A DNA stretch of 64,000 nucleotides from a virus. The stretch lies in IMG/VR virus record IMGVR_UViG_3300025158_000018, one strand, 5' to 3'. Below the pieces are notes generated by a model. It was given only the letters and a program-made list of their open reading frames with translations. It was not told the origin of the DNA and searched no databases. Shown piece after piece: positions 16,246-63,589 of this stretch. A program made the translations under genes and the position numbers. The stretch's first letter is position 1; each line of letters begins with the position of its first letter.

Positions 16246-16726
16246 CTTTCGGTCGATATTCCTCTATAGTTTTCTCACAGAAGCCATACACATCCCGCGA
16301 GTACTTGATAATGGTACTGATATGTGTCCAATCATCATGCAAATGATCGATGTTCATATACGCCAACCGTGTCAGTGTCAGACAGGACCTCCACTTAAGA
16401 ACATCCACAGGATTGTCCCCGAAGATGTACTCAAGGTCCATATGAACGCTGGTGCGATACGCAGTGTCCACCGCCTTGATCATCGTGAAGATGTTCCGCC
16501 GAAAATTCTGGTTCTGTAGGAACAACATGTAGGTGTCCAGATCGATAGCGTAGTGCTTCGCCCTTTCACTGCTCCCCAATCCGGGAATGTTAGGAAAAAA
16601 ATACCAACACCAATGGGTTTCCTTTCGACCTTGAACTGAAATCTCGAATAGAGCATTGGTAAGATGTTTTTTCTGCATTCTAGTGTAATCATCTAGAAGT
16701 CTTGCTTTGTCACCATTCTGGATCAT
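16232..16726 (-). CDS. DUF1810-like protein
   Basis: HWCWYFFPNIPGLGSSERAKHYAI resembles DUF1810 signature as recalled. Confidence 0.45.
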   Translation of the reverse strand: MIQNGDKARLLDDYTRMQKKHLTNALFEISVQGRKETHWCWYFFPNIPGLGSSERAKHYAIDLDTYMLFLQNQNFRRNIFTMIKAVDTAYRTSVHMDLEYIFGDNPVDVLKWRSCLTLTRLAYMNIDHLHDDWTHISTIIKYSRDVYGFCEKTIEEYRPKDAVD

Positions 16727-17363: not shown

Positions 17364-17548
17364 TCTCGTGCTTCCTTCGCACTAGGGAATTCCGTAGCAG
17401 AATTCAACAAAAAAAACATAATTTGCGCCGTTTTTGGTTAGTCGAATGAACATGCCAAATTTTGTAAGACCATCTACTTGAATGATTGCTTTCATGTGAG
17501 TATTCTATCCTATGGAAAGGGTCTTGTCAACCCCCATGTTAGAAAATT

Positions 17549-17622
17549 TGGTACCTCGTGACAGAATCGAACTGCCGTCATCGCTGTGTAAGAGCGTGGT
17601 TCTTCCATTGAACTAACGAGGC
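17549..17622 (-). tRNA. tRNA-Val (TAC)
   Basis: acceptor gcctcgt/acgaggt, D-stem gttc/gaac, loop ctTACac, T-arm ggcag-TTCGATT-ctgtc, CCA; missed by my first pass, found by T-loop scan. Confidence 0.75.
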
Positions 17623-17629
17623 ATTGTTT

Positions 17630-17714
17630 TGGTGCCGAGGGTAGGATTTGAACCTACGGTGTGGAATACTGGGTTACAAAGCCAGTGCAATCGACCAGAC
17701 TATGCGACCTCGGC
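17630..17714 (-). tRNA. tRNA, probably Thr (TGT); unusual 10-11 nt variable region or 9-nt anticodon loop
   Basis: acceptor gccgagg/cctcggc, T-arm gtagg-TTCAAAT-cctac, CCA; anticodon arm folds as ctggc-tttgtaa-cccag (one mismatch) or actgg-9nt-ccagt; TATAAATA 13 nt upstream. Confidence 0.6.
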
Positions 17715-19359: not shown

Positions 19360-21660
19360 TTACTTTTCTACCAATTCCAGAATTTTAGGTTTGAAATCAA
19401 TAGAAAAAGTCTCATCTACCATCGGATAACCCTTGCTGATGAAAATTGCCTCGACAATGTAGTTGTTTCTATTAAAATATTCCATCATAATAGTCTGCAA
19501 CGAAACTTCATTTTCGATTTTTTCCAACATTTTGGAAGGAACATAATCAATTCCAGTCATCTTATTCGCGACTTCGAAGAGTTCGTCCATGTTCTGGTAT
19601 TTTGTAGCTGAACCAACAATAGCCTCGACAATTTCCAAATCCCCATGTCTCCGCATAGGATTCATCATCGGTAATGAGTCCTGAGCTTTACGGAACGCTT
19701 CATCATCAAACCCGTAATCCTCGACCGTGCCTTTCAACCACTTTCGATCTACCATACTTCGAACCGATGCGTTGAATGAACAAACGAAGTCGATACAAAC
19801 ATTCAAGGCTTGCGCGCCCTGAATTTCTGTCAGCCGGTCACGCAGAATCCGGTGATGATCGTCGGTCAATTCCTCAATTTCACACAGGTTTTCGTTATCG
19901 TATTTCACACTTTTCGGGATCGCAATGATCTTATAGCCAGCATCCCCAAGCATAGCGGCAAGGGAAAGTTTGTTATAGACATCATCGCAATCATATACTA
20001 ATGAATTGTTATGAGTACGAAGCACTACAGTAGGTTCAGTAATGTCATTCAGATTCGCATCGAATACCGACTGGACATTGTGAGCATACAAAGAACGTTT
20101 GTGGCTAAATTGAGAAACGTAATTGGTGTCCAACCACTTTCCCAAATCAAACCACGCACGAACCTTACCACCTGTAATGCTGGTTCTGGAACGAGAAACG
20201 TTTTTGTCCAAACTGCTAACCCGCACAACCTCGAAAAACTTTTCAAAATATGCTACCAGATCATCAACAGATTGTCCGTCAGCCGGTTCAATGAAGTACA
20301 ACACGAGAGAATCATTATCATGATTATGCATACGAGACTTGTATGCAAACGCCTCATCCTTGATATAAACCCGATCTGCCCTAAACAATTCAATGCCTCC
20401 ATATCTGACAGTCTTGTTATTCTTATAGTCGTACTCGGACCAAACCAGCGGAGTTCTAACAACACTGCCCCGTTCGTCGCCGAAATCAATCTTGCCAAGG
20501 GTACAAGAGGAAACAATATTGGTATCCCACACAACCTTCAAATTACCACTCGGGTCAACGAAGAACGGCTCGTAGTTCTTTTTAAAATCAGTAATATTAG
20601 TCAACGTCCCACGCAAAAACTGTGGCATTTGATTTACAGTATCAAAGAAAGTCTTACACCCCGTAGCATAAGCACTATCTAGACGCTGAACCATTTCATC
20701 GGCAACCTTCTGTTCGGCAGAGCCAATAGCATCAAGAATGTTCTGACAGGTTTCGTCAGTATAGTGCAAACCTTCACGGCTAGGCTGAACTTCAACTGTG
20801 CCAATCGGCATGTCCAACATGGCGCTATGGCGCTCGGGGTGGTAGTACCCTCGTTCAACAGACATTTCTAACAAATGCTTAGTCATTGGAGACAAGGAAA
20901 TACCCTTGTTCTGAGCGTATTCAGTAATCATGCCTTTGTCGATGCGATATCCGACCGGACCGATCTGAACAAAAAAGCCCCGCATGACAGCATTCTGACT
21001 CTTGAAAAACTGGACAGAACCAAAATCCATCGCGACTTCCCAATCAGCCCAATCCCATTGCCTATTCGATACAGGCTTCACTGGGAAAAACCGCAGTTCA
21101 CGAATGACAGCATTGTGGAAAGAGCTGATATCCTTGCCCTGAACCGGGATGGAAACTTCCAGACCTGATTCCTCGTCCGTTTCCATTTCGGCCATCAACT
21201 TGAGATTCGGCATCCCTTCATCCTTGAAGGCAGTGTAGATGCGCTTCACGCCCTTGTGGATCGAAGTGACGGCGAAGGTATCAGTATACGCAAACGGGGT
21301 CTTAGAACCCAACCCAAAAGCCCCCACGGTGTTATTGTCTTGATCCTTGGTCGATTCAAAGAACCGGCAGTACACGCCGCTAATGTCGTCGGGAGAAATA
21401 CCGGGGCCAAAATCACGGATGACCAATTCAGAATCAATACGGTCGGGAAAAGTAAGTACGAAAGGACGCTCAGGCGTACCGACCATCAAATGAGCATCGT
21501 AAGCATTGGAGCAAATTTCACGAATAATAGCCCCAAACTTGTCCTTATAGAGGGTAGACGAAAGAGTATGAAAAGCCTTGGCATTCATTGCCATCGAAAA
21601 TTGCTGCGATCCCGCAACAGCAGAGCCAGTAGCCTTCGAACCGGCGACATTCAATTTCAT
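19360..21660 (-). CDS. rIIA: rIIA-like protein with N-terminal GHKL (HATPase_c) ATPase domain
   Basis: N-box EICSNAYDAH, G1 RDFGPGIS, G2 GAFGLGSKT; size and adjacency to rIIB. Confidence 0.8.
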   Translation of the reverse strand: MKLNVAGSKATGSAVAGSQQFSMAMNAKAFHTLSSTLYKDKFGAIIREICSNAYDAHLMVGTPERPFVLTFPDRIDSELVIRDFGPGISPDDISGVYCRFFESTKDQDNNTVGAFGLGSKTPFAYTDTFAVTSIHKGVKRIYTAFKDEGMPNLKLMAEMETDEESGLEVSIPVQGKDISSFHNAVIRELRFFPVKPVSNRQWDWADWEVAMDFGSVQFFKSQNAVMRGFFVQIGPVGYRIDKGMITEYAQNKGISLSPMTKHLLEMSVERGYYHPERHSAMLDMPIGTVEVQPSREGLHYTDETCQNILDAIGSAEQKVADEMVQRLDSAYATGCKTFFDTVNQMPQFLRGTLTNITDFKKNYEPFFVDPSGNLKVVWDTNIVSSCTLGKIDFGDERGSVVRTPLVWSEYDYKNNKTVRYGGIELFRADRVYIKDEAFAYKSRMHNHDNDSLVLYFIEPADGQSVDDLVAYFEKFFEVVRVSSLDKNVSRSRTSITGGKVRAWFDLGKWLDTNYVSQFSHKRSLYAHNVQSVFDANLNDITEPTVVLRTHNNSLVYDCDDVYNKLSLAAMLGDAGYKIIAIPKSVKYDNENLCEIEELTDDHHRILRDRLTEIQGAQALNVCIDFVCSFNASVRSMVDRKWLKGTVEDYGFDDEAFRKAQDSLPMMNPMRRHGDLEIVEAIVGSATKYQNMDELFEVANKMTGIDYVPSKMLEKIENEVSLQTIMMEYFNRNNYIVEAIFISKGYPMVDETFSIDFKPKILELVEK

Positions 21661-33337: not shown

Positions 33338-33531
33338 TGAGTGATTCAGTCGTAATAGAGTGTATCAAAGAAAAGATCGCAGAAGAGAAAAAAGCCAATC
33401 CAATGCTTCTCGATAAATTTACAGACACAGTGGAATTTGAGATGGGACTCAAGATAGGAATGGAGGCCATCTACGAATACCTGTCAAATCGCTACGAATT
33501 CGTAGAGAAGAAAGCTGTTGAAGATAAATAG
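33334..33531 (+). CDS. hypothetical protein
   Basis: ORF. Confidence 0.35.
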   Translation: MMSDSVVIECIKEKIAEEKKANPMLLDKFTDTVEFEMGLKIGMEAIYEYLSNRYEFVEKKAVEDK

Positions 33532-33553
33532 TAATAGCATTCAAAAAATAACC

Positions 33554-33868
33554 ATGAAAATATTCCTATTTGTTCTTCTGTTTTTAGTGGCCGGGTGTAC
33601 ACCCCCCACAACAAATGATATACTAGATAATCAATGGACTTGTAAACACTTGTACGATAGAGAACGTACATACATTTTCGATGCTAATAACATAAAAAAA
33701 ATTCAACCACAACAATGCTCTGCTATCATCATGAGAGACGGAGCATGCCCTGTTTACATTCGAATCGTCCTAGACTCTGGTGAAACTATCTGGTTTACTG
33801 AAGCCGAATGGGAAAATTATACTTGTAATTTCGAAGGGGAAAACCATGAAACTAGAAAAGATATTTGA
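33554..33868 (+). CDS. putative lipoprotein
   Basis: signal peptide MKIFLFVLLFLVAGC with lipobox Cys. Confidence 0.5.
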   Translation: MKIFLFVLLFLVAGCTPPTTNDILDNQWTCKHLYDRERTYIFDANNIKKIQPQQCSAIIMRDGACPVYIRIVLDSGETIWFTEAEWENYTCNFEGENHETRKDI

Positions 33869-35291: not shown

Positions 35292-35713
35292 TCAAAGAAA
35301 TTATCTTAGCCGGAAATGTAATCGCATCTTCCGCAGAAAATTTAGTTGAATTAAATGGTTATTGGGAGAATTCGCAACACGCAGTATCAATCAATATTAC
35401 CAACACCAGCGGTGAAATTATATGGTATACAACCGGATTTACTGTCGGAGAAGATGTTTGGTACAATGGGGAACTTTATTACTCTGAATATATCAGCGCC
35501 TATTGTGCCGATCTAACTCCCGGAAACACCATTCTACCAACTGTACTGTACCCCGTTCCACCTCTAGGAACCATCTGTATGGATGTTATTGATGAAACTT
35601 TGATCATTGGTTACTCTGTTGAAATGAGGGATTTTGGGAATTGCTTGTTCATGACTTGGAATTCGCATATCCCCCGGAAATGCGGCGGTAATATGGACAT
35701 GTTTAGAAAATGA
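35288..35713 (+). CDS. hypothetical protein
   Basis: ORF. Confidence 0.45.
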   Translation: MIKEIILAGNVIASSAENLVELNGYWENSQHAVSINITNTSGEIIWYTTGFTVGEDVWYNGELYYSEYISAYCADLTPGNTILPTVLYPVPPLGTICMDVIDETLIIGYSVEMRDFGNCLFMTWNSHIPRKCGGNMDMFRK

Positions 35714-36183
35714 AATTGATTAAAGGTGATTTATTGAAAAATACCAGTGGACTTCTATTGCATGGAGTCAACTGTCAACAAAAAATGAATTCTGGGATAG
35801 CAAAAGCAATAAGAGCAAAATGGCCTATAGTGTTTCAAGAATACTACAAGTTGGGAAAAGGAAAGCACTTGCTTGGAACTTTTCAACCAGTCGTCATTAG
35901 TAATTATCTGGTTATTGGAAATTGTTTTACTCAGGAATTTTATGGTCACACTGGTGGGCCATACGCTGACCTTGGGGCCATACGTAAGTCCTTGACAACT
36001 GCCGCAGAGTGGGCTAAAATTGAAGACATGGAACTGAAGATGCCGAAAATTGGAGCCGGTCTGGGCGGATTGGATTGGGTTGATGTAGCTATGGTAGTGG
36101 AAGAAGTAGAAGAATCGGTGGGCATAGAAATTAGTGTTTATCAAATTTCCCCCGGTACACAAAAAGCTGTGCTTTTTCGTTAG
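35710..36183 (+). CDS. macrodomain protein, TARG1/OARD1/DarG-like
   Basis: GDLL..LLHGVNCQQKMNSGIAKAIRAKWP and KIGAGLGGLDWVDV match TARG1-type macrodomain pattern as recalled. Confidence 0.65.
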   Translation: MKLIKGDLLKNTSGLLLHGVNCQQKMNSGIAKAIRAKWPIVFQEYYKLGKGKHLLGTFQPVVISNYLVIGNCFTQEFYGHTGGPYADLGAIRKSLTTAAEWAKIEDMELKMPKIGAGLGGLDWVDVAMVVEEVEESVGIEISVYQISPGTQKAVLFR

Positions 36184-38297: not shown

Positions 38298-39485
38298 ATG
38301 AAGATAATTAAGCTATTCGAGGCGAAAGAACCAGACCTTTCATCCATCATCGGCCCGGATGTTAAAAAATTAGGTCGTATATTCAAAAATAATGGATACG
38401 AAATACGAATCGTAGGTGGTGCTGTGCGTGATGCTTTACTCGGAAAAACCCCCAAAGACATCGACCTAGCAACAACCGCTACCCCGGAAGAGATGGAAAA
38501 GATTGGGCGTGTAAACAACCTTAGAGTTGTTGATACCGGATCAGAACATGGAACATTAACTTTTGTTATAAATGATGAACCTTATGAAATAACCACTTTA
38601 AGAATTGACAAAGATACTGACGGTAGACATGCTGAAGTGGAATGGACTCGCGATTTTAAGGAAGACGCCAGAAGAAGGGATTTGACCTATAACGCTATGT
38701 CGGTGGATATGGACGGAAAACTTCATGATTACTTTGGTGGCCATGAAGACTTGAAGAACAAGCAAACCCGCTTTGTCGGCGACCCAGATGAAAGAATTCA
38801 AGAAGATTATCTCCGGATTCTTCGTTATTTCAGATTCTTGGCCAAACAAGAAGGACGAGCGTCAGACGAACAAACTTTACAATCTATTTCAAGAAATGTT
38901 GGAGGATTACGTAAAATATCGGCGGAAAGAATTTGGTCAGAGTTAAGTAAAATGGTAATACAACCAAATATGAAACAAGCATTCAAAGAAATGAAAAAAT
39001 GTGGCGTCCTAGGGGCCATTTCTATGCCAACAAGCAGTTCAGCAATACGGCACGGAGCCGAAGCTGCAAAACTGCCTGAGATTCGCCCAGAGGCGGTCAT
39101 AGCCACAATGTTGGACGCAACACCGTCGGAGACAATGAATTTCGTGTCGAGAATGAAAATGTCTAGACCAGAAGCCAATTTGATAAACTACATAGTGGCG
39201 CGGGAAAACGTAAAAGGTGTTTCTTTTCTTGATGAAATCTTTTTCAATGGAATTAAACCCGAAACTGTTCGTCAATATGGGTTGGCAGTTGGTGACAGTT
39301 CTGCTGTATCAGCGGCAAAAGCAGCAGAAAATGCTCCACCATTCCCCGTTTCTGGTGGAGATTTATTGAAACGGGGTTTTACACCCGGACCAGAATTAGG
39401 TAAAATGATCAATTCACTCAAAAAACAATGGGTGGACAGTGGATTCAAACTGAACAAAGAACAACTTTTAGGAAAATTGAAATGA
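38298..39485 (+). CDS. cca: tRNA nucleotidyltransferase (CCA-adding enzyme), class II head domain
   Basis: GGAVRD, DIDLAT, RRDLTYNAM motifs. Confidence 0.85.
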   Translation: MKIIKLFEAKEPDLSSIIGPDVKKLGRIFKNNGYEIRIVGGAVRDALLGKTPKDIDLATTATPEEMEKIGRVNNLRVVDTGSEHGTLTFVINDEPYEITTLRIDKDTDGRHAEVEWTRDFKEDARRRDLTYNAMSVDMDGKLHDYFGGHEDLKNKQTRFVGDPDERIQEDYLRILRYFRFLAKQEGRASDEQTLQSISRNVGGLRKISAERIWSELSKMVIQPNMKQAFKEMKKCGVLGAISMPTSSSAIRHGAEAAKLPEIRPEAVIATMLDATPSETMNFVSRMKMSRPEANLINYIVARENVKGVSFLDEIFFNGIKPETVRQYGLAVGDSSAVSAAKAAENAPPFPVSGGDLLKRGFTPGPELGKMINSLKKQWVDSGFKLNKEQLLGKLK

Positions 39486-40012
39486 TTTTAAAAGAAATAT
39501 TTTTACAAGAATCAGTAAACGCTACTGATAAGTACACCATAGCAGTAGATATGGACGGGGTTTTGGCCGATTTCTCTGCGGGGGCCAGAGAAATGTTGGG
39601 TTTAGACAAAGATACTACACCTTCTAAAAAATTTTGGTCTACCTTGAGTAGATATGATAAAGAAGTTAAGCCATTTTTTCTCAATTTGCCCGTTATGGAT
39701 GATGCTTTTGAGTTGATGAGATTCGTCCATTCAAACTTTAAAAATTATTATATATTGACCGCTTCCGGGTATACTCCAAAAGACGGGGCGGAACAAAAGA
39801 AAGAGTGGGTTAAAAAAGTGTTTGGTCCGCAAATTAGAGTGGAAGTGGTAAAGAAATCTTCAGACAAGGCCAACTACGCCACAAACAACAGTATTTTAAT
39901 TGATGACAGGATGCATTCCATAGGCCCATGGAGAGATGCTGGCGGAATAGGTATTGTTCACGTTACAGCACAGCAATCTATTACAGAACTAAAATCTTTT
40001 TTGGGCCGTTAA
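39482..40012 (+). CDS. 5'(3')-deoxyribonucleotidase (NT5C-like HAD)
   Basis: AVDMDGVLADF motif; ATGA overlap with cca stop. Confidence 0.7.
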   Translation: MILKEIFLQESVNATDKYTIAVDMDGVLADFSAGAREMLGLDKDTTPSKKFWSTLSRYDKEVKPFFLNLPVMDDAFELMRFVHSNFKNYYILTASGYTPKDGAEQKKEWVKKVFGPQIRVEVVKKSSDKANYATNNSILIDDRMHSIGPWRDAGGIGIVHVTAQQSITELKSFLGR

Positions 40013-40827
40013 TCTAAAAGTTCGACCGGGGCATCAACCATACTAAAGTCGGACGGTATGTGTTTGCCCCAAGCTTTTTTTCCGGCCAAATCTATTATCC
40101 CGACGATTTTGTTAGAACCCCTGAATCCTACATTTGATGGAATAGAAAAAGTTTTAGAAATCTTGTCACTTTCTGTTCCAACATATTTCCTGACTATATT
40201 TTTAAAAATCTTTCTGAGACCGTCTTGTTCGTCTCTTATATCCGTACTGCCCGTAATACGTCCATCAACCAATTTACTAGCAAGAGATTTTATGTGAAGG
40301 GTAGAACGTTTGATAATGTTTTCAACCGTTACCGGATTTAAGTTATAAAACTCTTTCAAGTTTTTAGAAAGAGTTTTTGTGGTTTCTTTAGTTATTGTTT
40401 CAACCATTTGATCAATTTCTTCAAACATTTCGTCAGAGTCGTCATGGTTGTATTTGTCTAGGATATGTAAAACTTCGCCATAAATCTTACTGTCGATTTT
40501 ATCTAATATCTGAAATAAATCATCTTCGTCTAAATAAGAAGATTTCGGCTGAACCTCGGCAATTATTATTGCGGGCTCACTACTATCTATCCAACGAGCA
40601 AAATTTTTTGCTTTTCCAAAATTGGTAGTAAAATACACCCCCTCGTGTGGCTCATAGCCAAACCCGAAATCGGTGTTCATCTCATCATCACCCAAGCCCC
40701 CGCCCCTGTAGTTCATTATCAACCCATTTTTGATAATAGAGCGGAGATTCTTTTTACTGGTAGCATGATACGCTATAACCTTTTCTTTGGAAAATTTGGC
40801 CTTTTCCAAAACTATTCCTATTTTCAA
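40009..40827 (-). CDS. PARP-like (ARTD-clade, H-Y-E type) ADP-ribosyltransferase fold protein, putative
   Basis: AYHATSKKNLRSIIKNGL (PARP LWHGSRTTNFAGILSQGL), GVYFTTNFGKAKNFA (PARP GIYFADMVSKSANY), hydrophobic AIIIAEV strand, candidate catalytic E in YGEVLHI; recollection-based. Confidence 0.4.
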   Translation of the reverse strand: MKIGIVLEKAKFSKEKVIAYHATSKKNLRSIIKNGLIMNYRGGGLGDDEMNTDFGFGYEPHEGVYFTTNFGKAKNFARWIDSSEPAIIIAEVQPKSSYLDEDDLFQILDKIDSKIYGEVLHILDKYNHDDSDEMFEEIDQMVETITKETTKTLSKNLKEFYNLNPVTVENIIKRSTLHIKSLASKLVDGRITGSTDIRDEQDGLRKIFKNIVRKYVGTESDKISKTFSIPSNVGFRGSNKIVGIIDLAGKKAWGKHIPSDFSMVDAPVELLD

Positions 40828-40830: not shown

Positions 40831-41313
40831 TTATTGTCCCATTGCTAATCGAGGTCTAGTTTCCATTCTACGTTGAGTCTGAATGGTGTTAGGATCTCTG
40901 TTATCGCTCGGTTCTTCATCTTCCACTTCTCTAGTTAGCTGCATCATCAACTTGTTCATCACCACTCGTATTTGATTCATCGCAGTAATAACTATTCTTC
41001 GGTGTTTCTTTTTGTCGCTTGGATTTTTTAGTTTATTTGTTAAACCAAACGCCCACTTAGCCGTATTAAATCTACGCTGGGCTTCGTCGAAAATTTCTCC
41101 CACTGACATGTTTGGGCCAAAATCTGTAATGCCCTCACTTATAGCTTCTACCGCATCTTCACTAATCTGGATGTCATGTTCAGATACCAATGCACAAAAC
41201 TCTTCAAACAAGTTATTATATTCTTCTTGGAAACTGCACAATTGTTCTTCGAATCTGTTCTCTTCTAGGATATTTTTTAAAAAGCTCATTACCCATTCTC
41301 CTTGTTGGGACAT
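40831..41313 (-). CDS. hypothetical protein
   Basis: ORF. Confidence 0.45.
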   Translation of the reverse strand: MSQQGEWVMSFLKNILEENRFEEQLCSFQEEYNNLFEEFCALVSEHDIQISEDAVEAISEGITDFGPNMSVGEIFDEAQRRFNTAKWAFGLTNKLKNPSDKKKHRRIVITAMNQIRVVMNKLMMQLTREVEDEEPSDNRDPNTIQTQRRMETRPRLAMGQ

Positions 41314-41482: not shown

Positions 41483-42394
41483 TTACTGGGACTGTGGGGG
41501 ATTGTATACTCTCATATTGCCTCCCGGCGTATACAGGGCTTCAACCGGCATGAATGTGAAATTTCCATCCAACCCAGCCTGTTCCGCAAACGCTTGCTGA
41601 ACTTCCAATCTTCGGAATTCGAGTGGGGCGGGGCTTATACCTTCAGCAATAGTTCGATTCTCATCTCGAATTGTCTTTGCACGAGTCATACGAGTCTGAT
41701 ACTCCGCTTCCGCCAACCTACGGTCGTTTTCTTTACGAAGAAGGTCTATTTCGTTCTGGGCTCGCTCTCTCTGGATATCAAGCTCCCGTTCTTTAGCGAC
41801 TTCGATTGCGCGGGTCACGACATCCGGGAACGCAATGTTATTAATGATCACGTTTTCCAAAGAGAGGGGTGTTCCTCTCAACGCTGGACCTATCTCGGCC
41901 CCGAGTTCATCAGAAATAAGAGCGTAATTCTGATAAACCTCTTCGGAACTATAGCGATTAAGAACCACACGTGCCTTGTTCTGCACGATCATCTGTGCGT
42001 AGGTACGATAGGCTGTGTCAAGACCAAGATATGGATTATCGCGCTCAACCTTGATGTCATTGAACATCGCATTTATAATTTGGGGCTCGTTGCGCAGTCT
42101 GGCGCGAAAGCGAACATCGAAATCCAGTTCCAACCGGTCAGACAAAATGACAGTCATACTTTCGGTGAAAGTTTGAGTAGACATATCCAAAAGGACAAGT
42201 GTCTGGAACATATATACCGCCTTGCGTCCCGGTGGCAAAACTTCATCCTGATATCCCTGTGCTGTCAAAATCTTTCCTGATGCGCGGGTGGAATTCTCTC
42301 GTAGCTGCACCCACTCATTAGTAAAGCTCCAAGGGATATTACAACTGCTACTAATAGTTTTCTCATGGTTGATCGTCTCCTTTGTTAGTACCAT
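41483..42394 (-). CDS. SPFH/band-7 (HflC/stomatin-like) domain protein
   Basis: band-7-like core plus coiled-coil ..RERAQNEIDLLRKENDRRLAEAEYQTR. Confidence 0.5.
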   Translation of the reverse strand: MVLTKETINHEKTISSSCNIPWSFTNEWVQLRENSTRASGKILTAQGYQDEVLPPGRKAVYMFQTLVLLDMSTQTFTESMTVILSDRLELDFDVRFRARLRNEPQIINAMFNDIKVERDNPYLGLDTAYRTYAQMIVQNKARVVLNRYSSEEVYQNYALISDELGAEIGPALRGTPLSLENVIINNIAFPDVVTRAIEVAKERELDIQRERAQNEIDLLRKENDRRLAEAEYQTRMTRAKTIRDENRTIAEGISPAPLEFRRLEVQQAFAEQAGLDGNFTFMPVEALYTPGGNMRVYNPPQSQ

Positions 42395-42821: not shown

Positions 42822-43253
42822 TTAGTCAGTAAATACTTCGTTTTCTTTCTTGATCCTTTCCAAAATTCGACCAAGATGATTTTCCCCCTTCCCGCTTTCT
42901 ATATCAACCCCCCAAAAAGTATCTCCCCAACTGTTTCCTTCCACGATTGGCTCGTCTATTTGTGACAGTCTTTCGGCAAGTTCTGTATCAGAAAACTTGA
43001 TCTTGTTAAGATCATACATTATTTGTAGACTGATGTCAATCCAATCCGGGCGGACGTATTTACTGTACTTTCGAGATAGGCGTTTGGCCTTTCCCGGAGT
43101 ATTTGAATTAATTATCTTTTGCCGAATAGATGGGTCAGTAAACTTCAAAGCTTGGTAAGCATGCTCTGAGGTAAGATAGGTTACACCCTGAAATGTTATA
43201 GGATGCATATAAAAATTACTTAAAAAATCATATTTTCCCCTAAATTGCATCAT
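42822..43253 (-). CDS. NADAR (YbiA/DUF1768) domain protein
   Basis: FRGKYDFLSNFYMHPITFQGVTYLTSEHAYQALKF signature. Confidence 0.75.
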   Translation of the reverse strand: MMQFRGKYDFLSNFYMHPITFQGVTYLTSEHAYQALKFTDPSIRQKIINSNTPGKAKRLSRKYSKYVRPDWIDISLQIMYDLNKIKFSDTELAERLSQIDEPIVEGNSWGDTFWGVDIESGKGENHLGRILERIKKENEVFTD

Positions 43254-44002
43254 TCCATTAACTCCACAGTGATTTTACCGGTTGATAAAAAACTACCAGT
43301 GTCTATGTAACGAACGTTTCCAATATTGGTAACTTTTTCAACTATAGTGTGTCCGACGTAAATCCGGTCAACATTTAGAATTTTTTTAAGATCGGCTTGT
43401 AAATAGCTTCTGGAAGTAAAACGGCTTCTGCCCCAATACAAATTGTCCGCTAAATCTTTGCTCATCTGGTCTTCTGTCATTTTATACAATAACGACCAAT
43501 CGGTGAATTTGATTGGAAGCTCTGCATGTAGCACCCCAAATTTCTTACCATTTTTATGGTTTACCTCAATAATAGACGGAAGCTTTTCTATTATTTTTTT
43601 AAATCTAAGGTATGCTCCCCCATTGTCAATAATGGACCCACCGTTTTGCATAAAAATATGAAAATATGTTTTCAACTGAACGACATCATCAGTAGCAGGG
43701 TCGTAATCTTCCATCCAATACTTATGAGCAGCAAGCCACATTATTTCGTGATTTCCTAAAACGGGAAAAAACCATTCTTCTTCCATCAGTTTTAGACAAG
43801 AAAGGCTATCTGGTCCACGGTCCACAAGGTCTCCTACAGAAAAAACTCTGTCTACATTAGGATCGAATCTGTTGTCATAAAGAAGATTTTTGAAATCTTC
43901 ATAGCATCCGTGTAGATCGGATACTACGAAGTCTCTTCCTTCGGGGTTTGGTCCGTATGATTTAAAAAATTTCATTGATGTATTATAACTGGAACTATTC
44001 AA
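43250..44002 (-). CDS. calcineurin-like metallophosphoesterase (PP-lambda / ApaH-like)
   Basis: DLHG, GDLVDRG, GNHE motifs. Confidence 0.8.
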   Translation of the reverse strand: MNSSSYNTSMKFFKSYGPNPEGRDFVVSDLHGCYEDFKNLLYDNRFDPNVDRVFSVGDLVDRGPDSLSCLKLMEEEWFFPVLGNHEIMWLAAHKYWMEDYDPATDDVVQLKTYFHIFMQNGGSIIDNGGAYLRFKKIIEKLPSIIEVNHKNGKKFGVLHAELPIKFTDWSLLYKMTEDQMSKDLADNLYWGRSRFTSRSYLQADLKKILNVDRIYVGHTIVEKVTNIGNVRYIDTGSFLSTGKITVELME

Positions 44003-44034: not shown

Positions 44035-45804
44035 TCAAACCAAACGTCTTAAAGTTCTTTGATCTGGTGGTTGACCGGTAATATTAAAGAGAATTTGTCC
44101 ATTTTCAACGCTGCCGGTACCGATTGAATTTATTTCAAAGTCAGATTTTATAGCAAACTGTCCACCATCTACCGAATATATTTTCAAATCATCTAATGGG
44201 CCTGACAACATCCGCCATAGTTTGTTTCCTTCGGTATCGTGCAAAAGCCAATACAATATGGCATGGCCTTTTGAGTCTACAGAAATTGTCATTCCTTCGT
44301 TGTTACCAATTCCATAGTATCCGTTCATTGAATGTTCCGAAGCTTGTGATATTCTCTGTAACGGCACGGCTATTGGGCCATATCCTTCTATTTCCCCCCG
44401 CATTATGCCGGTAGTGTCATTGTGCCAATAAACCATGATTTCCCCCAATTCCGATATTTCTCCCTCGGGGTTAGCAGTAACAATCGTACCCTTGGCGACA
44501 GTCCCTTCTACATCACAAACAGCCCAAAACCACTGGTGTTGGCTATGCTCCCGATCTTTCCACGTTAGCCAGTGCAAAACCACGCGATTGTCGTCGGTGA
44601 ACCCAACATGCACCCCTTGCACCGACCATTGTTTGTTGCCCCACTGTCCGGCCAAGTTTTTAGTTATTGGCGATGAATCCCCAATCCACCATATAGGTTC
44701 TGTTATCGTTGGTGTGGGTGCGGTACTGGTTTTATTAAAGACCCGCACTTTTGCGGAATATTTGTTAAGTTTTTCTACTCGCACCACAATGTCATCGAAT
44801 TCGTATTGCGTTTCAGTTTCAATATACCGCAACAGCCTAGTAATTACCCACCGCTTGGTACCCTCGAACCACGGTACATGGACGGCAACAACTCCATTGT
44901 AGAAACTAACACATACTGATTTGTTCGTGCTGTCTCCTGTGTTGCACATAACAGCTTTATTCTCGCCGGTGCGTAAGGACAAAGGATTTCTGGAACCTTG
45001 GACCAACCACGTTTCAACAGACTCTCCGGATTCAAGCCCAATGATGTTGTTGTCTTCTATCAACCCGGCTTCGATTAAGTGTGGGGTATTAAAATCATAT
45101 ACGACCCCCGGTAGTCGGTCGAGCCCCATCCACGTGGAATTTTCTGCATATTCGCGTTGTCCTTGGCCAGAATGACTAACTCCTAATAAGGAATGTCCTA
45201 GGGTTTCGTGTATATGCGTACTTTTTTTGTACACACACCACGACTTAGACCAGCTTTTCGGACCATTTAAATCGGCACGACCACACAAGCTAGAATTAGA
45301 AATACCGGAAGATGTTATACACCCGTAATGCGTGTCGCCGAGTCTTTTATTGGGATACGCCTGATCTGACATATACCGAAGCATAGGCCAATCTACACCA
45401 AAGTAGCCATCACTGGTTATAATCGTTGGAAAGTTTACCGGATATACCTCAATATCCACTCGACCCCCAGCTATTCTGAGGTATTCATTCTTGATATCTT
45501 TTGCAGTGCGTTTGACATAATCGTCGCTTTCAAGATCTGGAAAAACTTCCGGCGACACCCCGTACCCAAATGTCAGTCCGACTCGTCGAACATCATGCTC
45601 TGGTAGTGCGGTCAAATCATATTGCCAATCTTCCAAATTTAAGAGACCAGCAGATTCAGAAAAAAGAGCCTCTATCGTTTTACCCATAGGGGGATTTTTG
45701 GCCATAGAATGTGGTGTTAGTTCTAGTCCCAGTGGATATTCATCAGTTATGATGATAGGAACATGACGGTCGTTTAACGTTATATGTCCGCGCAATACTA
45801 GCAT
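44035..45804 (-). CDS. large paralog 2 (589 aa) with conserved HETLGHSLLGVSHSG metal-binding-like motif
   Basis: global similarity to 45878..47638, incl. shared C-terminus PD.R.LRRL. Confidence 0.5.
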   Translation of the reverse strand: MLVLRGHITLNDRHVPIIITDEYPLGLELTPHSMAKNPPMGKTIEALFSESAGLLNLEDWQYDLTALPEHDVRRVGLTFGYGVSPEVFPDLESDDYVKRTAKDIKNEYLRIAGGRVDIEVYPVNFPTIITSDGYFGVDWPMLRYMSDQAYPNKRLGDTHYGCITSSGISNSSLCGRADLNGPKSWSKSWCVYKKSTHIHETLGHSLLGVSHSGQGQREYAENSTWMGLDRLPGVVYDFNTPHLIEAGLIEDNNIIGLESGESVETWLVQGSRNPLSLRTGENKAVMCNTGDSTNKSVCVSFYNGVVAVHVPWFEGTKRWVITRLLRYIETETQYEFDDIVVRVEKLNKYSAKVRVFNKTSTAPTPTITEPIWWIGDSSPITKNLAGQWGNKQWSVQGVHVGFTDDNRVVLHWLTWKDREHSQHQWFWAVCDVEGTVAKGTIVTANPEGEISELGEIMVYWHNDTTGIMRGEIEGYGPIAVPLQRISQASEHSMNGYYGIGNNEGMTISVDSKGHAILYWLLHDTEGNKLWRMLSGPLDDLKIYSVDGGQFAIKSDFEINSIGTGSVENGQILFNITGQPPDQRTLRRLV

Positions 45805-47990: not shown

Positions 47991-49652
47991 TTATTCTGTC
48001 AAGACTTCAATAGTACACAACTCTATAGAGTCCCCGACACCTTCTACTAAGAGAGTTGCGGGTTCCAAGCTGGAAACCCCGTCGAATACTCCAGAAGTAT
48101 TGTCTAGCTCGTATAGTACAGGGATGCCATCATTTGGAATATTCACAGTATCTGTAATTGAACCTGCGTTGGTAGTAATAGTAATATCTACTTGTATCGG
48201 ATTGATTGGTCCAGCGTAGGCGAGTGTAAACCTTATTCCGTGAACCGGGGTTAAAGTTGAACCGTATGTTAGGGCAACACCCGATCCGAACAAAGGATCA
48301 TCGATTCTCCAGCAACCGCCACCCAACGATGTTACATTGGCCCCATCAAATTCGGGAGACCAATCCGTGGACGTATCGGTCCACGATAAGGCAGCAGAAG
48401 CTGTTGGGCTCGGTGTTGGGCTCGGGCTGGACAACAAGCTGTCATCCACCCGTATAACTAATTTTTCCTCTAACATAGCATAAACGTGTGTGTCCTTCGG
48501 AAGAATACATTCTGGGTTTCCGTCATAGCCACCATTGAAAAAATAACCGTACATATTTAAAGTGTCTACTCCGGAAACATACGAGAAGGTACTCAAACTC
48601 TCTATGACTTCCCCAAATTCATCCAACACGATGTCACCGAAACTACCGTCAACATAAATTCGAGTGCGGTTAGGTGTTTTATTTAGATCTGTTTCACCCG
48701 GTGGTATGTATTCAGAATACAAAATATTATGGAACTCTGAACCCTCTGATAAGTCGATATCAATTTCTCTTGAATATTTGAAGGCCGTCCTGAATTGAAT
48801 TGAACCTTTCTGATATTCAGGCAAGGCAAGATCAGTAAAATCAAACTCTGAGCCCGCTCTGGTGGTTATAGTAGTGTTAGTTCCATCAAATGTTGAACTT
48901 TCTATTTCGTAAATACCCGTGTTGGGCTCGCTGTTCCGGAAATAAATATCTATACCCTGCAAATCATTTGTTGAAACGCTTTTGAATGAGTGGAACTCTA
49001 CAGTGGTTTGGTCGGCGTCAGCGTCATATGCCGCAGATCGAACTACGTACTTTCCATTGAAGTCACTTTCGGTCCCGGTTATCTGGAACTCGTTTTTGTT
49101 TGAAATAAAATTCTCGTGGTTTCCTTCCAAAATCAAAAATTTTTCTTCGTTAGAAATGACCTCGAACGGCAACATATTGACTACCAACATGATAGCATGG
49201 TTTGAAAGTATGGTAGAAGCATCACCCGAAACTACTACCTCGTTGTTTGAAGGGATGCTTAATATTTTAAATCTTGTGTCATCAGTATGGTTACCCTCTA
49301 CTTCAAACCATTCCTCTTTTGCATTTTGGGCGATGATTAATTCAGAAGCGACAAGGTCTGAGTTATCAAACACCACACCGTATCCACCGTTACAATCGAA
49401 TAAATCACAACAGTCAATAGCATCATAACCACAATTATCGTCGTAATCTAGGCCAAAACCCGTCTGTTTGCAAAGTGGCTCGTTGACAATAACCACACGT
49501 TTATTGACCCGTTCTATGAAATTTGCATCCATAGCCTCGAAGAAGCTATATTTTTCTACAACTTCTAAAAGTTTTGTATGGTAGGGCTTTGCTTCCCTAA
49601 AATATTCTAAAAAAGAATCAATGGCCTTGGAAGAAGAAGAATTTAATACCAT
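47991..49652 (-). CDS. hypothetical large protein (553 aa), Cys-rich N-terminal segment
   Basis: long ORF. Confidence 0.5.
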   Translation of the reverse strand: MVLNSSSSKAIDSFLEYFREAKPYHTKLLEVVEKYSFFEAMDANFIERVNKRVVIVNEPLCKQTGFGLDYDDNCGYDAIDCCDLFDCNGGYGVVFDNSDLVASELIIAQNAKEEWFEVEGNHTDDTRFKILSIPSNNEVVVSGDASTILSNHAIMLVVNMLPFEVISNEEKFLILEGNHENFISNKNEFQITGTESDFNGKYVVRSAAYDADADQTTVEFHSFKSVSTNDLQGIDIYFRNSEPNTGIYEIESSTFDGTNTTITTRAGSEFDFTDLALPEYQKGSIQFRTAFKYSREIDIDLSEGSEFHNILYSEYIPPGETDLNKTPNRTRIYVDGSFGDIVLDEFGEVIESLSTFSYVSGVDTLNMYGYFFNGGYDGNPECILPKDTHVYAMLEEKLVIRVDDSLLSSPSPTPSPTASAALSWTDTSTDWSPEFDGANVTSLGGGCWRIDDPLFGSGVALTYGSTLTPVHGIRFTLAYAGPINPIQVDITITTNAGSITDTVNIPNDGIPVLYELDNTSGVFDGVSSLEPATLLVEGVGDSIELCTIEVLTE

Positions 49653-51938: not shown

Positions 51939-52338
51939 TTGATCATTATATTGATATGAGACGGTATTTGCAATACTACTGGCAACAATTAAAATAGAGA
52001 AGGGGACAAGTTAGCTTGTCCCCTTCTGAGCTTTGGTTATACGGATATTGCTCTAACCCGCATTCGATCAAGCTGCTAGGGCGAAGCCGTTAGCGTTGCT
52101 GTCGAAGTCAGCGTCATTTGCTGCATTTATTTTACTATCATTTTTGCGTCTTTGTTGACGATTCTCCTCGATTCCTAATAACGCCCGGTCGATTTCCAGT
52201 TTCGCCCCCTCCAAAAGCGTCCACCATTTCCCGGATTTACCGGGTTTCTGACGCATTACCCAACTCGTCTAAGGCTTTTTTGTTTGCTACGCCGGGAGGA
52301 TGCCCTATCCTTCCTCTGTTGGCACTTGTAGACGCTTT

Positions 52339-52390
52339 TGGAGACGGCGGGAGTCGAACCCGCGTGTCGTTCGCTTTCAGTCTCGTCTCA
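52339..52390 (-). ncRNA. tRNA-like minihelix RNA (acceptor + T-arm only), candidate
   Basis: 6-bp acceptor gagacg/cgtctc contiguous with T-arm gcggg-TTCGACT-cccgc; only 20 nt where D and anticodon arms belong; TATAAATA plus TATAAT 23 nt upstream. Confidence 0.35.
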
Positions 52391-52428
52391 ACGAATGCTT
52401 ATTATTATACCTATTTATATCCAACCCG

Positions 52429-53133
52429 TCAAGTATCTTCGGACAATTTTATTTTAGTCTTTTTCTTAGTAGTTTTTTTTCTTCCACTGGATACCAATTT
52501 ACCATCCAAGGGGGTTTTGGGAGTAATGTCTTCTGTCTCAAGTAAAGAATTCTTCTCTCCAGCTTCTAAACGAGCAATAAGCTGGTCGGAATCCATCCAG
52601 ATATCTCGACCATCAACTACATGGTCGATCTCTTCTTCTGTAAGAATTTTCTCATAAAACTTTCTCATTATTTTTTCCACATAGCCGTTTACATGCTCTA
52701 CTCTCGTTCTAATTTCATGCCCCTTTCCGATTGCAAAACCGCCAGAATAGTTGTGTATCATAAAAGAACAATTCGGATTGATGATATACTCTTCCCCAGA
52801 TAAAAAAATCAAAGTCGCTGCAGAATGGGCATCTCCGTCTAAAGAAGTAATCACTTTGGCTCTAGATGCGACCATAGAGTTCACAATCTGTATTGCCATT
52901 CTAAGAGAACCGCCTTCACTGTTGATGTAAATTACTATAGTATCCTCTTCATTAGCGGTTTTTAACACATTGAGTAGGTCTGAATACTTGTTAATATCAT
53001 CCTCTATCTCTCCAGACAGATAAAAGTGGTGAACATTTAATTGCAAGCTTTGTACGTAATGCTTAATTTTTGGTGGATCAATCCTAAAAGAAGAACCATC
53101 CTCGAATCTTTCGTCAATTGCTTTATTTGACAT
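52429..53133 (-). CDS. ClpP-family (S14) serine protease homolog
   Basis: INSEGGSL and MIHNYSGG blocks; basic C-terminal tail. Confidence 0.65.
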   Translation of the reverse strand: MSNKAIDERFEDGSSFRIDPPKIKHYVQSLQLNVHHFYLSGEIEDDINKYSDLLNVLKTANEEDTIVIYINSEGGSLRMAIQIVNSMVASRAKVITSLDGDAHSAATLIFLSGEEYIINPNCSFMIHNYSGGFAIGKGHEIRTRVEHVNGYVEKIMRKFYEKILTEEEIDHVVDGRDIWMDSDQLIARLEAGEKNSLLETEDITPKTPLDGKLVSSGRKKTTKKKTKIKLSEDT

Positions 53134-61330: not shown

Positions 61331-62761
61331 TTACCAATTTGTTCGGGCGTTGGTGCGGACCTCTTCAAACGTCATATCCCGTACCAATTTTCCATTCAGG
61401 AATACCTCTTCCAGTAGTTCTATGTCTGTCGGAAGTTTCTCTTCCTCTCTAATGGTGATGGGTAGTCGGACACCGGATCGCTTAACTAATATAACCCGAC
61501 CCGCCTTAGAAGCCTTAGTGGGGTCAGTCTCAGTAGTTTTACATACTTCTCGAATTTCTCCATCAACTTCCACATACGAGCCCTTCATAGCAAAACGTAA
61601 CGTATCTCTCGTCAAATCTTGAAGCAAATATCCACCACACCCAAATGTAATATTATCTGCACTGAAGCCTGAGACCTTCATGGTCTTCAAAATATTTTCG
61701 ACTTCGGAGAGATTCACACCATCACCTTGAATGATTCTGACCGCTGGATTCAAAACTTTAAAACCCTTGTCATTTATAGTGTAGCCGTAAGAATCGGAAA
61801 GCTTGTTCAACGCAAGCATAACCATTTCTGTGGGATTTCCACTGTCTGGACGAATCACCACAGTACCACCCTTTTCTTCTATCTTTTCCCGAAGCTCTGC
61901 CCAAATATTAAGAGCGTTTTCGAACGAATAAGTGTCGCTAACTACAGAAACCATCTTACCCTCGCCACCGTATACATCAATGGCGCGCTCAAAAAACTTC
62001 TTCTCGTTGCCCGGACCTTCTGCAATAGTAACCGTGTGCTCCGTCGCCGGAATTGAAAACCCTGTTACAACCGGAGAATTATAGTACTCCATACAGGCGA
62101 GAATCCCAACAATATTGTCAGTTGCCATGAAATTGACCAAGTGTGCTGCACCAGCAATCTCACTCGACTGCTTAGAAGATGCCCCACGTGCCCCAAAATC
62201 AACAAACTTGAAGTCGATGAGGTCGGGGTCACCAGTTTCTTCCAAGTAACTGGAAATCAATTCCCGGAAACGATATGAGCGCGTTGCGACCGTAGTTCCG
62301 TACCACACGCCACGAAGCAAAGAGGTTTCCACATAGGAAGTGACCCACGCACAATTCTCATCGGTGTTCTCGACAACAACCATCACATTTCCTTCTGGTA
62401 CGTGCATTCCTTCTGGAACTGCGCGAATACTTAAAGGCAAAAACCCGTCACATTCGTTGACTATGTATTCCCAACCTTTCCGGTTGAATGGAAGACCGTG
62501 TGCTGTGATAACGGCTTCGGCCTGATTAACCATTTCCATCGTAACGGGCTTCATTAATGAGGTTTTGATTAAATGTTGAAGACCGAAGAATACTGAAGTG
62601 TCATACTCTCCACCCTTTCGAGCTTCAATATAAGAATACTGTCGGGTGGTTCCGGGTGCCATGAACCCAAAGTGGCTGGTCTTGTACGAGTCGCAATTCA
62701 ATATAGGATTGTTGCTTAATTTGTTCATGTTAAACTCCTTAATCATGTTTTTATAAAGCAA
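61331..62761 (-). CDS. nadV: nicotinamide phosphoribosyltransferase (NadV/NAMPT)
   Basis: N-terminal NCDSYKTSHF, size 476 aa, DFGARG, GDG family blocks. Confidence 0.8.
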   Translation of the reverse strand: MLYKNMIKEFNMNKLSNNPILNCDSYKTSHFGFMAPGTTRQYSYIEARKGGEYDTSVFFGLQHLIKTSLMKPVTMEMVNQAEAVITAHGLPFNRKGWEYIVNECDGFLPLSIRAVPEGMHVPEGNVMVVVENTDENCAWVTSYVETSLLRGVWYGTTVATRSYRFRELISSYLEETGDPDLIDFKFVDFGARGASSKQSSEIAGAAHLVNFMATDNIVGILACMEYYNSPVVTGFSIPATEHTVTIAEGPGNEKKFFERAIDVYGGEGKMVSVVSDTYSFENALNIWAELREKIEEKGGTVVIRPDSGNPTEMVMLALNKLSDSYGYTINDKGFKVLNPAVRIIQGDGVNLSEVENILKTMKVSGFSADNITFGCGGYLLQDLTRDTLRFAMKGSYVEVDGEIREVCKTTETDPTKASKAGRVILVKRSGVRLPITIREEEKLPTDIELLEEVFLNGKLVRDMTFEEVRTNARTNW

Positions 62762-62787
62762 AAGATTCTATGCCCATCATAAAATCT

Positions 62788-63513
62788 TTATTTCCAATAA
62801 TAATTGGAAAATTTTTTGGATGAAGATAACGCAACCCTGTAGTATAATTTGTGAACATTAATACCGAGTTGTCTGGATGCTTCTCGTAGTGATGGATATT
62901 CTTTACCATCTATAATCACTTTTTTTGACTTTCCATTTTTTTCGTTCATTTGTTTTCCTTTATGAGATTCACTCATTTTTTTTCTAGCTTCTTCTGTCGT
63001 TTTTCTTCCAACGAGGGCATCTCGTATTTTTTTCTTATGTTCTGGTGTTCTATTAAGGGCCATTGTTTTTAACCTTTTTCGTTCATGGGGTGTTTGACAT
63101 TTGGCTATAGCTATCCTAGACATTTTCTTTTTTGTTTCTTTTGTATGTTTTCTACCATGCCAATGATGGTTTTCACCCAACAGTAATCCCCCATCCCCAT
63201 ATAATATATTTTTTACCTTTTCATACATTTTACTGTTGGTTACTCTCTCTTCATGATATTTACTTTTAGCTCTCATAGGCATGAATGCTTGAAGTACTTT
63301 CGTGTAATTTTCTACATTATTTTTATGAATATCTATCAACAAGCGGTGACATATATAGTGTTCTCTTGCTGTTAAATAAACTAAATTTTCATTTACATCC
63401 AAACCTCCCAAACACTTTGGAATTATATGATGTTTTTCATAGTACGTGTTAACATCCAGTTTTCTTTCTAAAGCTTTATCAATAATTGAATCATAAACAT
63501 TTTTATAGTTCAT
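62788..63513 (-). mobile_element. free-standing HNH homing endonuclease with NUMOD3 repeats and C-terminal HTH, between nadV and the Nudix gene
   Basis: HHIIPKCLGG..NLVYLTAREH HNH; three HTKETKKKMS / TPEHKKKIRDA / TEEARKKMSESHKGK repeats; IIDGKEYPSLREASRQLGI. Confidence 0.7.
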
Positions 63514-63589
63514 GCGAAATACCTAATCATTTCTATCAGGTATTTATATTAGATACCTATCCGTGTTTAGATTTATATTAGTACTGGTC

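Follow-up and report, generated by a model that had tools for sequence, protein, structure and literature searches.

ADP-ribosylation is a central currency of the conflict between phages and their hosts, as illustrated by T4 Alt and Mod, DarT, CmdT and AcrIF11, and to our knowledge the phage-side writers of this modification that have been characterised are few. ADP-ribosyltransferases (ARTs) of the R-S-E type, among them T4 Alt/Mod, cholera toxin and the C3-type toxins, carry an arginine in strand 1, an S-T-S motif in strand 2 and [QE]-x-E before strand 5. The catalytic glutamate of PARPs and diphtheria toxin is located at the start of strand 5 (E988 of PARP1); mono-ART PARPs without this glutamate are of the H-Y-I/L/Y type (PARP10, PARP15 and PARP16), and some PARP-fold proteins that lack it are inactive. 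The NAD lobe of Tpt1/KptA belongs to the H-H-h ART clade, and the substrate of Tpt1 is an RNA 2'-phosphate and not a protein. Phage ARTs, including H-Y-[EDQ] types and the "PARTs" of jumbo phages, have been catalogued computationally (PMC5512222; PMC7824862; PMC9503650), so that a phage ART is, as a kind, already known.

The present analysis concerns a gene in a 64,000-nucleotide stretch of viral DNA (IMG/VR record IMGVR_UViG_3300025158_000018), referred to as the window throughout. Judged from its sequence, the window belongs to a distant T4-like jumbo phage; its Rnl1 is about 41% identical to the Rnl1s of T4-like phages and its NAMPT shares 53% identity with the enzyme of Ralstonia phage RsoM2USA, and no nucleotide-level match of the window to cultured phages was found. 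The original prediction had placed at 40009-40827 a candidate PARP-like (H-Y-E) ADP-ribosyltransferase and had cast it as the writer that would partner the window's macro, NADAR and Nudix genes. The ORF is real, with 272 residues on the minus strand, and the same predicted protein is carried by at least 31 contigs from metagenomes, of up to 256,834 bp, as called by independent gene callers. Its TTG start, which follows the stop of the upstream gene after 4 nt, is supported by the homologues of the protein, since they begin at the same position ('MKIQ.ILEKAKF'). The gene and the elements of its product are the following:

40009..40827, minus strand: complete ART-family ORF of 272 aa with a TTG start, a standalone member of the family
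40720..40779, minus strand: strand 1 and helix 1, residues 17-36, putative NAD-binding motif AYH21ATS..NL.SII..GL (conservation, profile alignment)
40765-40767, minus strand: codon of H21
40597..40641, minus strand: strand 2 and helix 2, residues 63-77, G-V-Y65-F-T....A73...A77 (inside the Pfam PARP match)
40552..40575, minus strand: strand 3, residues 85-92, PAIIIAEV (DSSP of the model)
40522..40530, minus strand: D100-E101-D102 (GAC GAA GAT), after strand 3 and a two-residue bridge, at the start of the insertion (conservation, DSSP)
40183..40527, minus strand: helical insertion, residues 101-215, about 115 aa in five to six helices (DSSP)
40066..40152, minus strand: strands 4-6, residues 226-254, with the loop [IV]-G-[FY]-x-G-x-N239-[KR]240-I241 (DSSP, conservation)
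40105-40113, minus strand: N239-K240-I241

The product is very probably an NAD-using enzyme of the ADP-ribosyltransferase fold, and the fold itself can be assigned with high confidence. The only relevant Pfam match of the protein is the PARP catalytic domain (PF00644), which aligns residues 11-117 to profile positions 44-142 of 199 with an E value of 7.3e-5; the score, 22.8 bits, falls short of the 26.7 bits set for gathering, a threshold that a few relatives just reach (27.5-27.6 bits). A seven-sequence profile searched against 1.84 billion cluster representatives retrieved 751 relatives at E<=1e-3 and 308 at E<=1e-10, and among 89 full-length relatives the Pfam PARP model was matched independently by 41 and Tpt1/KptA by six. 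Against PDB sequences the family profile detected Tpt1 (E 1e-5), DarT1 (4e-3) and PARP16 (0.03), always via the motif of strand 1 and helix 1. The AlphaFold2 model, built with the 89-sequence alignment, reached a pLDDT of 94 and a pTM of 0.88, and its best PDB matches in Foldseek were the ART domains of PARP1 and PARP13. The split beta-sheet core with the order b1-a1-b2-a2-b3...b4-b5-b6, the likeness to solved ARTs and the residues at the NAD-contact positions (H or R in strand 1 and Y, S or H in strand 2, here H21 and Y65) are those of the ART superfamily; both AlphaFold2 and Foldseek returned the fold on which the original prediction depended.

Secondary structure was assigned on the model by DSSP, and conservation was counted over 156 copies of the domain, among them those arranged in tandem and those embedded in giant proteins. 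A helix at residues 3-14 precedes strand 1 (17-24, with H21), helix 1 (25-34) and a long loop; strand 2 (64-67, with Y65), helix 2 (70-80) and strand 3 (85-92) are followed by a two-residue bridge (98-99), by the five to six helices over residues 101-215 and by strands 4 (226-229), 5 (240-246) and 6 (251-254). The first two signature elements proposed for the N-terminus are present, namely Y20-H21-A22-T23-S24, N27-L28, S30-I31-I32 and G35-L36 within residues 20-36, and G63-V64-Y65-F66-T67 with K72-A73-K74-N75-F76 within residues 63-76. Their agreement exceeds chance, to judge from the E value of the Pfam PARP match, its recurrence in 41 of 89 relatives and the PDB profile matches. H21 and G35 occur in 156/156 copies and T23 in 148/156, and this motif aligns with 'YHGT..L.SIL..GL' of Tpt1 (9ld4/8tfi), DarT1 (8baq) and PARP16. 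Y65 is present in every one of the 156 copies and G63 in 150, and hhalign placed strand 2 on 'GIYFA' of PARP1 and 'YVHLS' of KptA (both references being hand-entered sequences).

The third element had been described as a hydrophobic strand preceding the acidic residue. The hydrophobic strand A86-V92 is real; it is not the strand before the catalytic glutamate, it is strand 3, because the DSSP strand order puts it there and the Pfam PARP match ends at it, at profile position 142 of 199. By hhalign this strand fell on 'LILLGEVAL' of PARP1 (low confidence) and on 'PVILTV' of KptA, again with hand-entered references, and E91 within it is not conserved (K in 35, Q in 31 and E in 7 of the 89 relatives). 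Nor are all the elements contained in the first 100 residues, as had been proposed, since the fold is completed by residues 226-254, after the insertion of about 115 residues.

The position that corresponds by topology to the catalytic glutamate is N239-K/R240-I241, where no Glu is found in any of the 156 copies and a single Asp occurs, at 239. The equivalence of position 240 was established by topology and by hand comparison with 'N-E-Y-I-V-Y' of PARP1 and 'S-V-E-Y-I' of diphtheria toxin and is not a residue-level one, because the sequence alignments never reached strands 4-6; when the family profile was compared by hhalign with hand-entered sequences of PARP1 and KptA, strands 1-3 alone aligned with confidence, whether the insertion was included or not, and the insertion-deleted profile searched against the PDB again matched the first motif alone. 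Position 239 is mostly Asn (N140/T10/S4, one D and one P among the 156 copies) and position 240 is always basic (K95/R58/H3), while I241 is present in 156/156 copies and G237 in 153/156. The equivalent of PARP1 Y907, the second aromatic residue, which stacks on nicotinamide from helix 2, taken as position 76 from a hand alignment of 'YFADMVSKSANY' to 'YFTTNFGKAKNF', is not conserved (I39, A24, S11 and F5 among the 89 relatives). Since K, R or H stands at position 240 and Ile at 241, and the Y907 equivalent varies, the family would be classified by its sequence as H-Y-x and not as H-Y-E. The H-Y-E, PARP-like label was consequently abandoned, position 240 being acidic in none of 156 copies and the second Tyr not being conserved. 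We know of no PARP with a basic residue at the Glu position, and with the canonical Glu missing the activity of the family is not to be assumed.

A later acidic residue does exist, in the form of the conserved D100-E101-D102 that follows strand 3, although it does not occupy the canonical ART position. D100 and D102 are found in 156/156 copies and E101 in 155/156, so that this acidic run is conserved as strongly as H21 and Y65, and it is a candidate for a non-canonical catalytic or acceptor-binding motif. The insertion that begins here (query residues 103-221 in the comparison) measures 97-149 aa in the 89 relatives, with almost no conserved columns and a net charge of -2 +/- 5, that is, inconsistent and slightly acidic on average; such a charge gives no clue to the substrate. 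Foldseek found a weak, non-significant resemblance of the insertion to four-helix bundles. The family signature can be written as H...Y...D-E-D...[FY]-x-G-x-N-[KR]-I, in members that are only 22-49% identical in sequence.

Among the described ART systems, the NAD lobe of Tpt1/KptA is the closest to the b1-b3 core of the family (hhalign probability 94.7%, E 6e-8, hand-entered reference), whereas PARP1 reaches an hhalign probability of 16-19% to the same core (also a hand-entered reference). PF01885 and the NCBIfam Tpt1 models match the 'YHGT' motif alone, with E values of 0.003-0.07. Tpt1/KptA possesses an N-terminal RNA lobe, whereas the family has only 16 residues before strand 1; the Arg-His-Arg-Arg tetrad of Tpt1 is lacking, the His of strand 2 ('VHLS') is replaced by the invariant Tyr ('GVYFT'), and the helical insertion of about 115 residues, the invariant D-E-D and K/R240 further distinguish the family. 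That the nearest structural and profile relative is an RNA-acting and not a protein-acting enzyme counts against the mechanism favored below. PARPs have no counterpart of the insertion or of the D-E-D motif, and their helical regulatory domain is missing in the family. Of the catalytic domains of diphtheria toxin and exotoxin A, that of diphtheria toxin differs by Glu148 at strand 5, by its second Tyr and by a much shorter insertion, and the 272-aa protein shows neither the Pfam match nor the ARTT-loop catalytic Glu of DarT (DUF4433).

T4 Alt, ModA and ModB are also phage ART-fold enzymes that modify host macromolecules, and as such they provide a functional analogy for the explanation preferred here; they are R-S-E enzymes, whereas the family is H-Y-x, and no sequence similarity was detected between them. 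The R-S-E signature is absent, with H21, Y65 and G-x-N-[KR] at its positions, and the invariant strand-1 His and strand-2 Tyr agree with the proposal of a class unlike that of the T4 enzymes. The further idea of a different class for phages is right relative to T4, although not as a novelty, H-Y-[EDQ] ARTs of phages having been catalogued before. ART-PolyVal/Tox-ART-HYD2 (PF18760) shares with the family the superfamily, the niche and the His of strand 1, and the two modules co-occur in the giant polyvalent proteins P0105, P0134 and P0122. However, PF18760 matched neither the 272-aa protein nor the family module inside polyvalent proteins, and the hhalign probability between ART-PolyVal and the family is 14-16%; strand 5 of ART-PolyVal carries Asp (PMC5512222), where the family has K/R, and the insertions occur at different places.

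The family includes about 750 metagenomic clusters (at 50% identity) and is essentially confined to uncultured large phages. Standalone proteins have about 250-340 aa; tandem duplicates of the module occur, for example in P0049, P0057, P0062 and P0076, and no degenerate copies were seen even in tandem arrays. It also forms the C-terminus of giant polyvalent proteins that bear ART-PolyVal (H-Y-D) copies and GNAT and, variously, cREC, InPase, Nudix or SprT (P0105 has 4,167 aa), and polyvalent proteins have been described as injected multi-effector proteins (PMC5512222). In P0068, encoded on a 435-kb contig, the module is fused to a HAD_SAK_2 RNA-repair phosphatase, a single case among about 150 sequences, and one 584-aa member lies directly upstream of a T4-type portal gene. 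Among cultured phages, tblastn with four members over 50,697 genomes detected the family only in the Stenotrophomonas jumbo phages CM1 and RAS14, with WAX21574.1 as the RAS14/CM1 homologue, and tblastn with one member found none in 72,556 plasmids. A pattern-limited scan of the 185,579 species-representative genomes of GTDB yielded only fragments of the N-terminal motif; in IMG/VR the locus scan with pattern A4 recovered 11 loci, and the scan with pattern A1 recovered zero relatives in IMG/VR or GTDB. No family of Pfam or NCBIfam reaches its curated threshold for these proteins and the PHROGs matches are unknown-function families only. As judged against the Pfam/NCBIfam models and the characterised members, the family appears to be new, with a distinctive insertion and unusual invariant motifs.

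The window genes that bear on the proposed writer role are:

42822-43253, minus strand: NADAR, four genes upstream of the ART gene and on the same strand
35710-36183, plus strand: Macro (E 2.5e-5)
63896-63955: Nudix box, in a gene that runs off the window end
39428-40012: HAD, window neighbour of the ART gene
40831-41313: 160-aa ORF, window neighbour of the ART gene

The macro, NADAR and Nudix genes are thus all present, as originally noted, although their linkage to the ART is not conserved across the compared loci. The window NADAR matches Phage_30_3 weakly, and the Nudix gene, of which the Nudix box forms the C-terminus, lies beside NAMPT, with a homing endonuclease between them; in a related locus, L001, NAMPT adjoins a CTP_transf_like+NUDIX gene, and the Nudix-containing gene and NAMPT are an NAD-salvage pair. 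The ART of L001 (44% identical) is placed between homologues of the window genes 47991-49652 and 33518-33868, and the homologues of the HAD and of the 160-aa ORF stay together there without an ART between them; no NADAR adjoins the L001 ART, the NADAR segment being absent from that locus. L001 and RAS14 have no NADAR or macro gene next to the ART, and synteny with NADAR or macro is preserved neither in these two nor in L011 or the IMG/VR loci. Except in near-identical phages, L011 (42% identical), RAS14 and the IMG/VR loci have no neighbour family in common with the window or among themselves, and an all-against-all BLAST of the neighbours in the fetched loci found no conserved partner gene. 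The NADARs of T4-like phages of the gp30.3 type were shown experimentally to erase the marks of host DarT1 from phage DNA (PMC11825919), and the macro, NADAR and Nudix domains of phages have been argued to serve mainly to counter host ADPr-based immunity (PMC9503650).

Because the Nudix domain belongs to NAD salvage, the L001 locus is rearranged, common neighbours are lacking and NADARs act against DarT1, a writer-eraser link is not supported, and the ART is unlikely to be the writer for these three genes. The proximity of macro, NADAR and Nudix genes to a phage ART is not in itself enough to define a writer-eraser system. The window HAD was considered as a Rosetta-stone link to the HAD_SAK_2 of P0068 and rejected, because the two share the generic DxDG motif alone. 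The ART gene of the window is free-standing, in an auxiliary-gene region. Its neighbours are genes of nucleotide and RNA metabolism and not virion genes, a setting that also counts against the favored mechanism.

That mechanism, which we regard as probable, is one in which the family consists of NAD+-dependent mono-ADP-ribosyl transferases with a non-canonical active site that serve large phages as effectors; we infer both the transfer and the roles of the residues. Strand 1 and helix 1, through H21 and the backbone of G/A22-T23, and strand 2 and helix 2, through Y65, would bind NAD+ in the manner known from Tpt1, PARPs and diphtheria toxin, and the enzyme would then cleave the nicotinamide-ribose bond and move a single ADP-ribose to a host, possibly a phage, macromolecule. 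It would not be a polymerase, because the strand-5 glutamate that PARPs need for chain elongation is absent. Target choice would most likely fall to the helices inserted between strands 3 and 4, which evolve fast, and D100-E101-D102 together with the basic residue 240 may replace the canonical Glu, as catalytic or acceptor-positioning elements. The biological role would most likely be that of a host takeover or counter-defence effector, which other phages would deploy as the same module in virion-delivered polyvalent proteins or beside the portal gene.

Other readings of the same observations have to be weighed. Several features point to a phosphate- or nucleic-acid-directed transferase like Tpt1/KptA or DarT: the core resembles Tpt1, a basic residue occupies the acceptor site, the module is associated with HAD_SAK_2 and cREC, and the neighbouring genes serve RNA metabolism. 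In such an enzyme a terminal or 2'-phosphate or a base of RNA or DNA would attack NAD+ and residue 240 would position the anionic acceptor, in the service of RNA end-healing or repair or of the modification of host or phage nucleic acid. We consider this unlikely, since the protein has a 14-residue helix before strand 1 and no N-terminal RNA-binding lobe, the Arg-His-Arg-Arg tetrad is absent and strand 2 offers Tyr for His. An invariant acidic D-E-D would be odd at a phosphate-binding site, and the slightly acidic average of the insertion goes in the same direction. The genomic associations are also weaker than they look, with a window HAD that has no specific relationship to the HAD_SAK_2 domain in P0068, a fusion seen once in about 150 sequences and a placement of the ART next to HAD and CCA genes that is not conserved in L001. 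Moreover, repair of the T4 type by Pnkp and Rnl1 leaves no 2'-phosphate to be removed. It is still less probable that the enzyme is an NAD+ glycohydrolase or a small-molecule ADP-ribosyl transferase, directed for example against host NAD-derived immune signals and lacking a macromolecular target. The ART fold, with its NAD-binding His and Tyr intact, is one that NADases use as well, the Glu that activates macromolecular transfer is absent, and the phage has NAMPT with its Nudix-containing partner, macro and NADAR, which act on ADP-ribose derivatives; many phage macro, NADAR and Nudix domains have been argued to target soluble ADPr signals (PMC9503650). The large hypervariable insertion, however, fits the recognition of a macromolecular target better, as does the repeated position of the module by ART-PolyVal and GNAT in multi-effector polyvalent proteins, a phage with its own NAD+-salvage genes would hardly be expected to waste NAD+, and ARTs of the NADase type are significantly under-represented in viruses (PMC9503650).

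The reading from which the analysis departed, a canonical PARP-like H-Y-E writer combined with macro, NADAR and Nudix erasers in one phage module, now appears very improbable and its H-Y-E part is largely refuted. It draws on the H and Y motifs, on the weak Pfam PARP match and on a NADAR, a Macro and a Nudix box that are really in the window, but the topological strand-5 position has no acidic residue in 156 copies, the second Tyr of PARPs is not conserved and the PARP score does not reach the gathering threshold; NADAR/macro synteny is missing elsewhere, the Nudix box is part of a NAMPT-linked NAD-salvage gene and NADARs of T4-like phages erase DarT1 marks (PMC11825919). Hardly more credible is a catalytically dead ART-fold pseudoenzyme or decoy that would only bind NAD+, ADP-ribose or a host protein. 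The loss of the canonical Glu could be read in this sense, and inactive PARP-fold proteins exist, PARP13 being among the structural matches; yet invariant H21, Y65 and G35, a near-invariant D-E-D and a basic residue 240, maintained at 22-49% identity, form the pattern of an active site, and no degenerate copies occur, even in tandem arrays.

Beyond the mono-ADP-ribosyl transferase preferred here, a more specific proposal, possible although rather doubtful, is that the catalytic acid has moved from strand 5 to D-E-D and that the Lys/Arg at the old Glu site steers ADP-ribose onto an anionic acceptor. If this were true, the family would embody an active-site arrangement new to the ART superfamily, with an acceptor such as a protein carboxylate, a nucleotide or the phosphate of a nucleic acid, and large phages and their polyvalent proteins would deliver an ADP-ribosylation chemistry specific to phages. 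The signature H...Y...D-E-D...N-[KR]-I and the insertion depart from the three textbook ART triads, so that work on one member could uncover a catalytic residue in a new place or an acceptor specificity not seen before. The family is large and repeatedly built into injected polyvalent proteins, without a studied member or a curated model, and characterising one member would also give a function to a recurrent module of those proteins. An experimental entry point is offered by the cultured Stenotrophomonas jumbo phages CM1 and RAS14, whose homologues are annotated as 'hypothetical protein'.

The genes around that for the ADP-ribosyltransferase (ART) protein include a NADAR and a phosphoesterase gene, which overlap by 4 nt:

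42822-43253, (-), NADAR gene (E 6e-24 in Pfam; Phage_30_3 matches weakly)
43250-44002, (-), calcineurin-like metallophosphoesterase gene

The NADAR protein is likely an anti-DarT1 factor of the AdfN type (compare PMC11825919), and a calcineurin-like phosphoesterase was found again 9-12 genes away from the ART gene in three further loci that carry members of the family (L014, L015 and L016). Genes of NAD+ salvage are located at the end of the window:

61331-62761, (-), NAMPT
62788-63513, (-), NUMOD3/I-TevI-like endonuclease
63590-64000, (-), Nudix-containing C-terminus of a gene that continues past the window end

In the related contig L001 NAMPT directly adjoins a CTP_transf_like+NUDIX gene, and in the window (61331-64000) the salvage pair is apparently interrupted by the homing endonuclease.

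The 435-kb contig L006 encodes, besides P0068, in which the ART domain is fused to HAD_SAK_2, a second and weaker member located about 2 kb (four genes) downstream of the fusion:

L006 13390-14097, (+), second ART-family member, 235 aa (E 6e-11)

Comparison of the AlphaFold2 model of the ART protein with BFVD gave weak structural matches to Gp251, Gp53, Gp336 and Gp610 of Bacillus phage G, all uncharacterised, and matched 237 columns on R9TEX3, an uncharacterised protein of Vibrio phage nt-1 (368 aa). R9TEX3 may be a remote full-length analogue of the ART protein in KVP40-like phages.

Three large ORFs are also encoded in the window:

44035-45804, (-), paralogous protein of 589 aa
45878-47638, (-), paralogous protein of 586 aa
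47991-49652, third large ORF, 553 aa

The first two are side by side and share 43% identity, and neither gave a significant match in the Pfam search; a shorter homologue of the third (396 aa) adjoins the ART gene in L001. The phage carries in addition genes of the membrane-quality-control type:

41483-42394, (-), SPFH/Band 7 protein, 303 aa
52429-53133, (-), ClpP-like protease with a weak NfeD N-terminal match

Two other genes have possible roles in anti-restriction or DNA topology:

8106-9131, (-), ORF whose product has a domain resembling S-adenosylmethionine lyase (E 9e-8)
19360-21660, (-), HATPase_c-type (GHKL) protein, 766 aa

A large translation and RNA-repair repertoire is formed by the tRNA cluster (His, Met x2, Pro, Tyr, Leu x3, Arg, Val and Thr), a CCA-adding enzyme and two RNA ligases:

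363-1559, Rnl2-like/PHA02142 ligase
2150-3301, T4-type RNA ligase 1
3378-17714, (-), cluster of 11 tRNA genes
38298-39485, CCA-adding enzyme

A tmRNA was identified by both ARAGORN and Rfam:

51977-52429, (-), phage-encoded permuted (two-piece) tmRNA

ARAGORN reported it as 'tmRNA*' with the tag AANDADFDSNANGFALAA, and RF04321 (tmRNA_permuted) matched 52068-52396 at 60.9 bits, above its gathering threshold of 47. Permuted tmRNAs are typically carried by a few bacterial lineages, e.g., Alphaproteobacteria, and this gene may therefore provide a hint to the phage host.
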